Positions 40,885-44,631 of a stretch of 64,000 nt of DNA are shown piece by piece. The stretch comes from an uncultured Verrucomicrobiales bacterium. Lineage in GTDB: Bacteria > Verrucomicrobiota > Verrucomicrobiia > Verrucomicrobiales > DEV007. The stretch spans positions 47,138 through 111,137 of the forward strand of contig CALKOM010000001.1 of the NCBI GenBank assembly GCA_938091905.1. Direction: 5' to 3'. The translations under genes and the position numbers were made by a program. The notes under the pieces were generated by a model. That model was not told where the DNA came from, searched no databases, and was given only the letters and a program-made list of their open reading frames with translations. Position 1 is the stretch's first letter. Each line of letters opens with the position of its first letter.

Positions 40885-42822
40885 CTAACGCAGAAACGGT
40901 TTGCCTTGCTGATAGAGCGATAGGCGGCCTTTCAGCTCCTTTATCAACCTGTCATTACGCTGTTTCCGTGCCATGGCGAGCGCACGCTGCGTGAGCTGAC
41001 TGGCCTTCTCAAACTGCTGGTTACTGGCCAGAGCAGTGGCAGCCGTATCGATGGCATGGGGATTGTTTGAGAATCGTTGGAGGATCTTCTGAGCCAAGGA
41101 CAGAGCACGTCTGGGATTGCGGAAAGCCGGGTTGCGACTGGTCGAGAGTACCCAGCAAAGCTGATTGAGTGTTTGGAAATCATCGGGCTTCACTTTGAGT
41201 GCGAATTCGTAGATCGCGGCTGCTTGATCATCTTGTCCAAGACTCTGGTAGGTGTTCCCCAACTGTACTAAGACATCGTGTTGTTTTGGAGCCCGCTTGA
41301 GGAAAGTCTGGAGAATGGTTGCTGCTTCCTTTCCGCGTCGGAGTGCGGTAAGCGTGCGGGCATGGGCGAGCGTCGCTTTGGAGTGTTGGGGATTCAGCTT
41401 CGTTGCCCGTTGGTAGAATGGAAGAGCGATCTTGGGCAAGGCATTCTCCAAGCGATAGGTTTCTCCTAACATATACTGAATATCGGCCTCTTGATAACGC
41501 CGTTTCGCAGCTTCCCCCTCGTCAACCTTGGCGAGCGCCTCTTCGAGATAGCGTCGAGCATGTTCGTTGTAGCCGCCCTCGAGGTAAACTCGAGAAATGG
41601 CCACCGGATGGGTGATAAAGTGATCATTTGACCAGCGACCTGGGAATGGAATGGCATGGTCAGGATGTTTGGAGACGGGTTGTTGTAGGCGCTGGGTCTG
41701 TGCTAGGATCGAGTCTGCCGAGACGGCTCCTTTGGTGAAGCTTACAAGACTTCCACGATGCCAAAGGAAGCTACTAGGCAGAGGGAGGGCTTCCTGTTTG
41801 TAGAGAGTGTTGCGCTGGGCTTGATCGAGAGCCTCGACCATTTCTTGACTGGCACGGCCGGAAGCGAAGGGCCAATTGAGCTTCCTTAGACGTTGCTCCA
41901 GTGCCTTGGGACTTGGGGCTTCCGTACCTTCGATTTTTGACTGAGCCTCTTCGATGTTCAGGGCGACGACTTGAATACCCGCGTTCTGAATGGCCTTATG
42001 TTGCGTTGATAGGAGTTCCATTTCCTTAAGGCAAGGCTGGCACCAGGATGCCCACAGAAGGGTGAGGGTGAGTGGTTGGGTGTCAATGGTGGCGGTGCTA
42101 CCTGACCAGGTGCGGTAGCGAAGCGTCGGTGCAGAACGGGGCTCCGATAGATAGGTCTCCATCGTTGGAGGTGGACTCGGTAGCGTCAACGGTGTTGCTT
42201 TCAATGCAATGGCAGCTTGTTTCGCGGCGGTCGCTTTGCCTGTCCCCTGACGAAGGTGCCATCGGCCGGAGGGTTTCGCTTCGAAAGTCTCGCCTGCCGT
42301 CTGACCTGGCCATGTCACCTGAATCTTTGTTGTTGTGGCTTTGCTACCGAGCCCGAAGTGAAGCCACTTGCTGGACTGGCTTAGGAAGCCATCGCCTGCG
42401 GTGACCTGGCGCGTGAGCTTGGTCCTATCCGAAAGAGTTATGGTGGCGATGGCACCGATAGCATCGCGTGGCGTCCCTTTGCTGGGATCACCTTCGAGGC
42501 GAAGGGCAAGTGTTTTAGCTTTTGTTAGGTAGTCGTTTCGGAGCAGACGCACTCGAGGTCCGGTGCGATTGCTCACCCAGAGATCCAGATCGCCATCTCG
42601 ATCCCAGTCGGTGATGGCAAGGGCGCGGCCGTCGTCTGGCAAACCAAAGCCAGACATCAGGGAGACGTCGGCGAAGCGCTTCCCACGAGTATTGAGAAAG
42701 ACACTATTTGGTTCGCGACCTGAGAAGGAATTGCCGTTTCGGATGCGCGTGGCGAGATCTTGCCAGGCATCGAGGTAGCCTTGGCCCGGAGTGGTAGTTT
42801 CTTTGCTAGGACTTTGCGACAC
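40885..42822 (-). CDS. ASPIC/UnbV + thioredoxin-like (WCQPC) + TPR region; probably the C-terminal half of a UGA-readthrough protein
   Basis: SFSGREPN, DWDRDGDLD, AIGA, GFLSQSSKWLHFGLG, WASWCQPC, C-terminal TPRs. In frame with the upstream ORF; the GTG start has no clear RBS. Confidence 0.8.
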   Translation of the reverse strand: MSQSPSKETTTPGQGYLDAWQDLATRIRNGNSFSGREPNSVFLNTRGKRFADVSLMSGFGLPDDGRALAITDWDRDGDLDLWVSNRTGPRVRLLRNDYLTKAKTLALRLEGDPSKGTPRDAIGAIATITLSDRTKLTRQVTAGDGFLSQSSKWLHFGLGSKATTTKIQVTWPGQTAGETFEAKPSGRWHLRQGTGKATAAKQAAIALKATPLTLPSPPPTMETYLSEPRSAPTLRYRTWSGSTATIDTQPLTLTLLWASWCQPCLKEMELLSTQHKAIQNAGIQVVALNIEEAQSKIEGTEAPSPKALEQRLRKLNWPFASGRASQEMVEALDQAQRNTLYKQEALPLPSSFLWHRGSLVSFTKGAVSADSILAQTQRLQQPVSKHPDHAIPFPGRWSNDHFITHPVAISRVYLEGGYNEHARRYLEEALAKVDEGEAAKRRYQEADIQYMLGETYRLENALPKIALPFYQRATKLNPQHSKATLAHARTLTALRRGKEAATILQTFLKRAPKQHDVLVQLGNTYQSLGQDDQAAAIYEFALKVKPDDFQTLNQLCWVLSTSRNPAFRNPRRALSLAQKILQRFSNNPHAIDTAATALASNQQFEKASQLTQRALAMARKQRNDRLIKELKGRLSLYQQGKPFLR

Positions 42823-44631
42823 GACCTGCCGCCAGTAGAAGCCTCACAAATCACCGGTGTCTTCCTGAGTGATGAAGCCATTGGCCACAATCAAATCTTG
42901 CCAACCGTCATTGTTGAAGTCGGCAAAGGCAGATCCCCAGGCCCAGCGTCCTTGGGTGACAGCAGCGGACACGCTGACATCCTCGAAGCCCTTGCCAGGT
43001 CCGAGATTGTGGAAGAGGGAGTTTCCTCTGGCGTGCCGGACAAATAGATCGCGGGTGGTGGTGTCTTCGTTTGCGAGGAAACGGGCCTGCTTGGCGATTC
43101 GATTACCTGCGGAGGAGAACATGTTGCTAACATAGATGTCAAAAAATCCATCGTTGTCGTAATCACCCCAGGCGGCGGACATTCCGGCAGCGATGTCGAG
43201 CGTACCGCTACTCTCGGCCACGTCAGTGAATCGAATTTGGTCTCGGACCTTGTCTTGGCGGTAGAGATTGTTGCGACCGAAATCATTGGCGACATAGAGA
43301 TCGAGATCGCCGTCCCGATCATAGTCTGCCCACGCTGCTGCATAGCTGTAACGCGTGTTGTTCGCATCGAGCCCCACTCGTTGGGTCACGTGGCGAAAGC
43401 GGAACTCGCCGTCATTTCGCAACAGCGAATTACGGCCGCCATTGGTGGCATCTTGATACGGCACGGGACGAGCTAGGGCCACGTTTCTATCCACGTGCCC
43501 ACGACGATCGTAGCAGGCTGCAAAGATGTCTAGATCGCCGTCCTGATCGTAGTCTGCGGCAGCGAGTGAGTAGGGGACCGCAAAGGGGAGTACCTCGGCA
43601 GAGCGCACGGTGAATCGTCCCGAGCCATCGTTCTCTTGGATAACGAGGCCTTCGGCTACGGAAACGACAAGGTCCTGATCGCCGTCGTTGTCGAGATCAA
43701 TGAAGAGGGCACCTCGGCTAGTTTCTAACCAATCTACTCCGGCCGCAGTAGCGACATCGCCTGCCGTGCCATCGGCGCGTGCAAGGAACAAACGGTTGGG
43801 CAAGCCGCCACTCTGACACACGTAGAGATCCTCCATACCATCACCATTGGCATCGCCAACGGCCAAGCCGTTCCATCCCCCCACTTTGAGGCCGACGCGC
43901 GTATCGAGTCGAGCCAGCCAATGATCCAGACCGTGAGCGAGTTGGTTTTGAAATGCAGGATCGCGACCGACCACTGTGGCTGTCGCTTCTGTGAAGAGAG
44001 CGCCTCGCGTTGATGTGGTGATGACCTCTTCGTAGTCATCGACAATGAAACGTTCCAAGGCGAGTGACGTTCCCGTCCGTTTCCAGCTGCATGACCAAGT
44101 GCTATTGACTTGTAAGTCCTTGCCATCGGAGGTTTCACCATCTAACCGAATTTCTAAGCGGGTTTCCACCCGTGTTGCGGAAGTTTCCACGCCGACCGTC
44201 TTAAACTTTACATTGAGTGGGCCTGTACTTAGTCCCTTGGTTAGACTCAGAACTGCTTGGGTCCAGCCACTGGGCCCATGAAGCTTGTCCGATGCGTCGC
44301 GACCGGCGCGGTGGACTTGCAGGACATCGTCGATGTATGCCTGGTCGCGCTTCGTCGGACGTAGCGGGGCGCCGCGAAAGTTGTGAGCAGCAATTCCTTC
44401 TAATCCGGCTGCTTGAGTGCCAGAGGCGAGCGTTTCTTTGAGGGCTTCAAGGCGCGAGCTGGTGACTTCGGCAGCTTGTTCGCTATCCCAGCCGCCATGA
44501 CTAGGATCGTACCTTGGGGTGGCAATACCAGTACCCGGCACTGCAGGGGGGCTTGTTTGTGCAACGGCGCTAGGTCCTCCTAGGAGGATCGCGATGAAAG
44601 ACAGGAGGGGAACGCGCCACATGGTGAACAT
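40885..44631 (-). CDS. candidate selenoprotein, 1248 aa with Sec at residue 596 (FG-GAP - Sec - ASPIC/UnbV - Trx CxxC - TPR)
   Basis: Single in-frame TGA at 42844-42846 in GAT TTG TGA GGC TTC TAC TGG CGG CAG GTC GTG = DL*GFYWRQVV. A SECIS-like hairpin follows immediately. Confidence 0.72.
42808..42846 (-). promoter_or_regulatory. putative bacterial SECIS element
   Basis: UGA GGCUUCUACUG GCGGCA-GGUCG-UGUCGC AAAGUCCU. The upper 6-bp stem starts 11 nt after UGA, the loop begins with G, and the lower pairing is AGGCUU/AAGUCCU. Confidence 0.7.
42844..44631 (-). CDS. secreted FG-GAP/VCBS-repeat (CRTAC1-like) region; probably the N-terminal half of a UGA-readthrough protein
   Basis: Signal peptide; six DxDxDGxxD-type repeats (DANGDGMED, DLDNDGDQD, DYDQDGDLD, DYDRDGDLD, DYDNDGFFD, DFNNDGWQD). 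Ends ...DTGDL-TGA. Confidence 0.85.
   Translation of the reverse strand: MFTMWRVPLLSFIAILLGGPSAVAQTSPPAVPGTGIATPRYDPSHGGWDSEQAAEVTSSRLEALKETLASGTQAAGLEGIAAHNFRGAPLRPTKRDQAYIDDVLQVHRAGRDASDKLHGPSGWTQAVLSLTKGLSTGPLNVKFKTVGVETSATRVETRLEIRLDGETSDGKDLQVNSTWSCSWKRTGTSLALERFIVDDYEEVITTSTRGALFTEATATVVGRDPAFQNQLAHGLDHWLARLDTRVGLKVGGWNGLAVGDANGDGMEDLYVCQSGGLPNRLFLARADGTAGDVATAAGVDWLETSRGALFIDLDNDGDQDLVVSVAEGLVIQENDGSGRFTVRSAEVLPFAVPYSLAAADYDQDGDLDIFAACYDRRGHVDRNVALARPVPYQDATNGGRNSLLRNDGEFRFRHVTQRVGLDANNTRYSYAAAWADYDRDGDLDLYVANDFGRNNLYRQDKVRDQIRFTDVAESSGTLDIAAGMSAAWGDYDNDGFFDIYVSNMFSSAGNRIAKQARFLANEDTTTRDLFVRHARGNSLFHNLGPGKGFEDVSVSAAVTQGRWAWGSAFADFNNDGWQDLIVANGFITQEDTGDL

Follow-up and report, generated by a model that had tools for sequence, protein, structure and literature searches.

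A predicted SECIS element behind an in-frame UGA in a multi-copy CRTAC1-like propeller gene of an uncultured Verrucomicrobiales bacterium

The window analyzed here, a stretch of 64,000 nt from contig CALKOM010000001.1 of an uncultured Verrucomicrobiales bacterium, carries on its reverse strand a gene for a CRTAC1-like propeller protein with an in-frame UGA at codon 596, followed closely by a small RNA hairpin. We conclude, with a probability of about 0.93, that this hairpin is a bacterial selenocysteine insertion sequence (SECIS), and we predict that selenocysteine (Sec) is inserted at codon 596. Computation shows that the stem forms, that it is conserved and covaries, that it is confined to UGA forms of the gene, that the decoding machinery is present and that the fold continues across the UGA; insertion itself is expected from the established biology of SelB and SECIS elements. 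SelB with Sec-tRNA(UCA) would bind the G-containing apical loop, 17 nt past the UGA, and the ribosome would insert Sec at codon 596 rather than terminating. The product would be a single exported protein of 1,248 residues with a CRTAC1-like propeller, an ASPIC/UnbV domain, a CxxC redoxin domain and tetratricopeptide repeats (TPRs). The features of the locus are:

40885..44631 (-): whole gene, 1,248 codons, reading TGA as Sec (U596)
44631-42844 (-): called open reading frame (ORF), N-terminal part, 595 aa (gene call)
40885..42822 (-): called ORF, C-terminal part, 645 aa, with a GTG start inside the hairpin (gene call)
42844..42846 (-): predicted Sec codon 596, in-frame UGA (TGA at 42846-42844)
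42833..42843 (-): 11-nt spacer from UGA to stem, GGCTTCTACTG; equal spacing in Escherichia coli fdhF and in fdhA of this genome
42816..42832 (-): putative SECIS minihelix, 6-bp stem GCGGCA/UGUCGC, from its fold, conservation and covariation at pairs 16:30, 18:28 and 20:26
42826-42822 (-): apical loop GGUCG (DNA GGTCG), 5 nt, inside the minihelix
42832-42827 and 42821-42816 (-): stem arms GCGGCA and TGTCGC, the latter followed by AAAGTCCT
42808..42815 (-): 3′ arm of a proposed lower stem; not conserved, probably outside the signal

The hairpin and its likeness to known SECIS elements

An earlier note on this DNA had described the UGA, the spacer, GCGGCA, GGUCG and UGUCGC at 42808..42846, and the sequence is exactly as it said. 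RNAfold forms the 6-bp stem, with one G-U pair, starting 11 nt past the UGA, and the 5-nt loop starting with G is present after 17 nt, as had also been claimed. The pairs of the stem have probabilities of 0.945–0.983 in a context of 100 nt, and the folding energy is -13.8 kcal/mol for the 47-mer and -7.3 for the isolated 6-bp hairpin. The bacterial SECIS consensus, as set out in section 5 of PMC13188914, comprises a loop of 3–9 nt, a stem of 4–16 bp, a G in the first two loop positions, a spacing of 16–37 nt and a minimum free energy (MFE) of at most -7.5; with its 5-nt loop at 17 nt, GG, 6 bp and the energy of the 47-mer, the element is an ordinary bacterial SECIS by that section of the source. 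The lower stem AGGCUU/AAGUCCU that had been proposed can be drawn here but is not the lower stem of the MFE fold, and only 38% of its cells are paired in 83 homologs; in the MFE register, the outer three pairs reach 58% pairing, and every inner pair fails to form in 47–64 of the 83 sequences. We therefore rejected a lower stem as part of the signal in both registers.

A bulged U in the upper stem matters for E. coli SelB. Likeness to the E. coli fdhF element (sequence from NC_000913.3), another claim of the earlier note, holds for the start of the stem, also 11 nt past the UGA, for the upper helix at nt 15–31, and for the common GCAGGUC apex, which begins at nt 19 in fdhF and at nt 18 here, with a loop starting with GG. 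It does not extend to the details of the apex: in fdhF a U is bulged and the loop is the 4-nt GGUC, whereas the propeller gene has an unbulged stem and the 5-nt GGUCG, and so falls outside a strict fdhF type defined by bulged U plus GGUC tetraloop; unlike fdhF, it also has no conserved lower stem. Two elements from the same genome are closer to it than E. coli fdhF: the SECIS of fdhA, our internal positive control, whose spacer is also 11 nt and whose 7-bp stem has no bulge and carries a GGUCU loop, and that of a VPGU gene, with a GGUCA loop.

The decoding machinery is complete, as selA, selB, selD and a tRNA-Sec gene (selC, anticodon UCA) all occur in the genome. A restrictive motif-plus-hairpin scan found six other candidate selenoprotein genes with an in-frame UGA (G000 C167 [L388], C5 [L389], C29 [L390], C117 [L391], C115 [L392] and C171 [L393]). 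Three of them, fdhA, a VPGUxxT thioredoxin and a TUGYCR-type redoxin, score above NCBIfam cut-offs; the remaining three are a peroxiredoxin-like TGGUT, a TlpA-like WUAGC and a DsbD-like WUATC protein.

Hairpins in this register are rare behind stop codons. Among the stops of the genome that end ORFs of at least 200 codons, the exact register was found at 13 of 4,050, nine of them in this family. Two further candidates with the exact register lay outside the family and were dropped, with no selenoprotein family found for them; one is a metallo-beta-lactamase-fold ORF with a chance UGA upstream. Within the window, only UGA 42846 shows 6/6 pairs among the 36 stops lying between open stretches of at least 80 codons each. 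The earlier note had set this UGA apart from the decay stops of the window, and the other 35 of 36 stops indeed lack a 6/6 stem, although the decay stops were not individually identified. Given the peptide and the codon usage of the genome, the probability of a perfect stem is 0.029, and that of stem plus GGUCG is 0.0057. There are 603 open codons before the UGA and 652 after it, and homology runs continuously across it.

Conservation in UGA forms and spread across genomes

The earlier note had named a hairpin arising purely from the WRQVVS codons as a refutation, and codon usage among homologs argues against it. A metagenome scan with the motif D-L-x-S/T-F-F/Y-W-R-Q-V, which leaves both x and the 3′ arm unconstrained, yielded at least 120 loci with TGA (38), Asn (53), Ala (10), Gly (7), Ser (6), Met (3), Glu (2) or Asp (1) at x, and no Cys, Trp, TAA or TAG among those listed. 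Two Ala loci from unrelated proteins were dropped, leaving 80 sense-codon homologs. Among the matches listed, the perfect stem occurs in 36/38 UGA vs. 1/80 sense loci, the stem with GGUCG in 32/38 vs. 0/80, and QVV is written as CAG GTC GTG in 33/35 vs. 3/80; for the peptide WRQVVS alone, the stem is found in 30/31 UGA vs. 1/5 sense loci. In these same matches, the Ser following the Sec column is encoded by AGY in 37/38 UGA and 80/80 sense loci (L136-L255) despite TCN being allowed, a shared ancestral trace of both kinds of loci. The base after the UGA is nearly always A.

A wider set of homologs (at least 150 bits) comprised 287 loci, with TGA in 159, Cys in 25, another residue in 103, and TAA or TAG in none. 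The stem is present in 140/159 UGA loci, 0/25 Cys loci and 3/103 others, a comparison in which the 25 Cys loci are one divergent clade and which excludes the DNA of ten close Cys orthologs (DLCSFFWRQVV). The stem is thus missing from these Cys loci, as the earlier note had anticipated, whereas most non-UGA orthologs carry not Cys but Asn, Asp, Glu, Gly, Ser or Ala.

The covariation that had been expected among UGA orthologs was also found. In 83 UGA sequences of the 5-nt-loop class, from which two divergent rows (L278, L040) and 18 tetraloop rows were left out, pairing in the stem reaches 97.6%, and three of its pairs account for 14 double changes; none of 500 shuffles did as well, and control registers slid along the same alignment reached at most 67%. 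The 18 tetraloop loci form a second class, with the peptides WRTVVR, WRAVVR or WSTVVL and mostly a stem with a GGUC tetraloop that likewise starts at nt 15. In L381 (G578:C253:27000-38000), three copies have the hairpin shifted by one base (WRQVAA/WRQVVA); this locus, L278 and L276 contain UGA-bearing members in tandem. A close member in G008:C14 (L119/L299) lacks 3 nt including the UGA and keeps a perfect GGUCG hairpin; in the same assembly selA is split and one more member is broken, and the loss may be an assembly error.

Of the paralogs in the genome itself, ten carry TGA at the Sec column and another two, more distant, have TGC. The 6/6 stem is present in all ten TGA paralogs; taken gene by gene, its chance probability for the given peptide and codon usage is 0.013–0.062, the paralogs not being independent of each other.

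UGA forms occur in three phyla, almost only alongside Sec machinery, and the closest named relatives are metagenome-assembled genomes of Verrucomicrobiales and Planctomycetota. Among the matches listed for 40 relatives, 18 bear the family at E 1e-30; 16 of these have TGA forms and are all selA-positive, the other two have one distant sense-codon match each and are both selA-negative, and none of the 19 selA-negative relatives has a TGA form. Up to 20 family matches were found in one relative. The family was found in 62/251 genomes of the phylum of G336 (Planctomycetota), with an internal TGA in 54/251, and in 55/251 of the phylum of G337 (Vicinamibacteria), with an internal TGA in 40/251; these counts were tallied from tables with the best nine candidates per genome, and the TGA column was verified solely for fetched loci (50 TGA among 82 scored). 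In these phyla selA is present in 51/54 and 38/40 TGA-bearing genomes, against base rates of 186/251 and 199/251. Four of the five selA-negative exceptions have selB, and the fifth a borderline tRNA-Sec match alone. The base rates themselves are higher than expected, possibly from sampling bias. Eleven of 11 further named UGA genomes tested were selA-positive, as were 4/4 sense-form genomes. Around the phylum of the present genome the family is patchy, being found in 0/300 other sampled genomes at E 1e-55 among the best eight candidates per genome. In G033 two family genes flank selD-selB-selA (L268, G033:C1:4450000-4469999; L269), one 3 kb upstream of selD and the other about 12 kb beyond selA, and in G620 a family gene lies 0.4 kb from selA.

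The predicted protein and competing explanations

Read through the UGA, the gene encodes:

whole protein, in order: signal-peptide-like N-terminus (by eye), N-terminal alpha/beta domain, FG-GAP propeller with Sec596, ASPIC/UnbV, redoxin, TPRs
aa 724-778: ASPIC/UnbV domain (Pfam)
aa 863-867: WCQPC (CxxC) of the redoxin domain

Pfam matches above cut-off were PF13517 (134 bits), PF01839 (71 bits) and PF07593 (55.6 bits). Modeled with AlphaFold and with Cys in place of Sec596, aa 26-1010 reach a mean local confidence (pLDDT) of 93.9 and a predicted template-modeling score (pTM) of 0.94; in this model, the propeller spans model residues 185-772 together with the ASPIC domain, and residue 596 begins a helix (model 571-581) that is inserted between two strands of the propeller. 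Among known structures, murine CRTAC1 matches best (9etn; Z 40.1, root-mean-square deviation 2.3, 454 aligned), and a hidden Markov model comparison gives E 1e-26. CRTAC1/ASPIC (9etn) and bacterial FG-GAP and UnbV_ASPIC proteins have in common the propeller-plus-ASPIC/UnbV core; compared with CRTAC1, at 21% identity, the protein has in addition the N-terminal alpha/beta domain, the Sec-bearing helical insert, the CxxC redoxin domain and the TPRs. The redoxin domain matches the oxidoreductases ResA and TlpA by fold, and weakly by profile. In catalogued thioredoxin-fold selenoproteins, Sec lies inside a UxxC or CxxU motif, whereas here the CxxC has two Cys and Sec is 268 residues upstream, in another domain. 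For the N-terminal domain we found weak single-member DUF4440/SnoaL hits (1/49 each) and no convincing sequence match in the PDB. Several paralogs have lipobox-like starts.

The Sec column is occupied by diverse residues. In 118 full-length database proteins it holds D (36), E (25), I (12, a distant group), S (12), C (10), A (8), G (5), H (5), N (3) and R (2), and Trp is found neither there nor in the 287 loci. The Cys clade (L023, L024 and 23 related loci, with two copies in this genome) has proteins of about 750–890 codons without redoxin domain, in which D-[YH]-C at the Sec column is invariant and W-x-H/D-D follows downstream. In FastTree trees rooted with distant homologs, UGA forms are on nearly all deep branches, sense and Cys forms nest among them several times, and the column changes state at least 16 times among 223 tree rows, which suggests, short of proof given the long branch of the root, an ancestral Sec with repeated loss. 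Of the UGA loci with 330 or more residues downstream, 101/102 retain the CxxC, which is present in 3/23 sense loci, 16/93 sense proteins and 4/10 Cys proteins. Five of eight independent Sec-CxxC pairs on the tree go the same way and none the opposite.

The replacement of Sec mostly by Asn, Asp, Glu, Gly, Ser or Ala, usually with loss of the CxxC, suggests an internal redox relay. Sec596, at the N-terminus of the propeller-inserted helix, would place a reactive selenolate outside the cytoplasm, where the protein's own CxxC redoxin domain might re-reduce it while the TPRs bind a partner. The column residues and the CxxC association led us to put such an exported relay at even odds. That it represents a selenoenzyme of a structurally new class, in which an exported CRTAC1-like propeller bears Sec on an inserted helix and a built-in CxxC thioredoxin domain recycles it, seems to us just short of an even chance.

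On the same grounds, we regard as possible, with the odds against it, that Sec is inserted without any CxxC relay, either as a structural or metal-binding helix-cap residue or as a selenium-dependent switch for the full-length protein. The replacing residues fit a helix cap, since D, E, S, N and G typically begin helices, and the many state changes on the tree, the lack of a redoxin domain in many UGA members and in the whole Cys clade, and the persistence of sense forms in selA-positive genomes all point in this direction. However, the CxxC, near-universal in those UGA loci whose C-terminus is long, has decayed in the majority of sense forms, and a separate clade of 25 members retains Cys at the column, which favors the redox relay.

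Several results weigh against Sec insertion at codon 596 or its redox use, starting with the redoxin-free UGA members and the selA-positive genomes with sense forms (4/4, 5/8 and 11/15) just mentioned. The Sec-CxxC link has a median p of 0.06 (0.03 with Cys pooled with Sec). Cys occupies the column in only 25/287 loci and 10/118 database proteins, other residues being commoner, unlike in nearly all selenoproteins (PMC13188914, as stated in its section 6). Sense homologs are not free of hairpins either: irrespective of register, a hairpin of -5 kcal/mol or lower occurs in 21/80 of those listed in the scan and in another 10/23, so the peptide itself favors some pairing, shifted or looser. The perfect stem in register is missing at 19/159 UGA loci. 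Only six independent tree pairs relate UGA to the stem, three going the same way and none the opposite (p 0.25, underpowered), and Fisher counts therefore overstate independence. No Rfam SECIS model matched and there was no hit at gathering score in the window; for 42700-42950, Rfam returned a chance snoRNA hit alone (E 3.3). Finally, the energy of the hairpin is not above chance (z -0.78; 44/200 shuffles as good). The SECIS of fdhA in this genome is likewise weak against shuffles (z -0.46), so this test is uninformative; the RNA is evidence independent of the protein, as the earlier note had claimed, only through comparison across homologs, because it is non-significant on energy alone.

The energy result and the hairpins of about a quarter of the listed sense homologs would also be expected if the UGA were a real stop between two genes, of 595 aa and of 645 aa from the GTG at 42822, with the hairpin a by-product of the WRQVVS codons. 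Gene callers do split the locus, the 645-aa C-terminal half is deposited as an entry of its own in a 39-member cluster of a public protein collection, and TGA terminates 1,256 long ORFs in the genome. Nevertheless, TAA and TAG never appear at the column in the 287 loci, termination there would interrupt the propeller, the GTG falls within the hairpin and is preceded by no purine-rich site, the synonymous codons of the stem are fixed in UGA forms only, and the sense-codon orthologs are single full-length proteins. We hence consider two genes very improbable.

Reading of the UGA by a near-cognate tRNA (Trp or Cys) or a changed code, with the hairpin merely stimulating readthrough, is just as improbable. 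The many residues tolerated at the column imply that Sec chemistry may be non-essential, and the A that nearly always follows the UGA would suit readthrough; however, Trp is absent from the column, TGA is a normal stop in this genome, and the UGA forms track selA/selB and match the fdhA SECIS in spacer and loop. A sequencing error or recent pseudogenization is refuted by conservation, with an identical TGA in 159 loci from three phyla, 652 open codons past it and a contig from run X13, which may be the source sample, matching 42582-42914 without difference, and has a negligible probability.

Prior record, significance and neighboring genes

Members of the family have very probably been tabulated before. 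In S9 Table of Kim et al. 2016 (PMC4807772), four split genes with equivalent domains and an in-frame UGA are listed as candidates, with a SECIS called in 3/4; the aligned residue is Gly in an Acidobacteriaceae homolog, which fits the sense clade described here. We judge the identity with this propeller family by names and aligned residue. The candidates appear there as table rows only, without mention of the family in the main text or S2 Text, and the table is silent on their covariation, distribution, copy number, structure and any link to a CxxC. By name or domain identifier, the family is missing from Table 1 of the 2026 catalog of 119 families (PMC13188914). The passages searched of PMC13188914, PMC12013277, PMC13326102, PMC13745706 and PMC5372823 contain no ASPIC, FG-GAP or UnbV, and those of deep-Sep, BSepDB and SelCysML no ASPIC, FG-GAP, CRTAC1, VCBS or UnbV, a listing elsewhere being possible. 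NCBIfam release 20 gave 18 hits, all below cut-off and none to a selenoprotein model. Other CRTAC1-family genes are reported beside hydrazine-synthase homologs (PMC12758564). A link between UnbV and enediynes was considered and dropped, no paper having been found for it.

The hairpin itself is textbook; what it reveals is a large, multi-copy and barely documented selenoprotein family, cut in two by gene callers, whose fold and non-Cys sister forms are both unusual. Its recognition would alter estimates of selenium demand for these bacteria, correct many annotations, and show that families with residues other than Cys in their sister forms can escape searches that rely on Sec/Cys pairs. The natural series of Sec, Cys and Asn/Asp/Gly forms, with or without CxxC, offers a means of probing the role of CRTAC1-like propellers. 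Should these proteins be a new class of selenoenzyme, their ten copies and the up to 20 matches in a relative would make them the dominant part of the selenoproteome in these bacteria, the usual Sec/Cys pairing would be broken, Sec having repeatedly given way, along with loss of the CxxC, to Asn, Asp, Glu, Gly, Ser or Ala, and they would give a first biochemical handle on bacterial CRTAC1 relatives.

RNA runs contributed small shares of matches; among the pieces listed, no RNA contig piece spans the UGA, and the contigs are not informative on expression. The neighborhoods of 12 paralogs have no common neighbor except repeat proteins. Upstream of the propeller gene, on the same strand, a BlaI/penicillinase-repressor gene (PF03965; 44674-45093, -) ends 42 bp away, and a similar-looking gene lies directly downstream of the C6 paralog.

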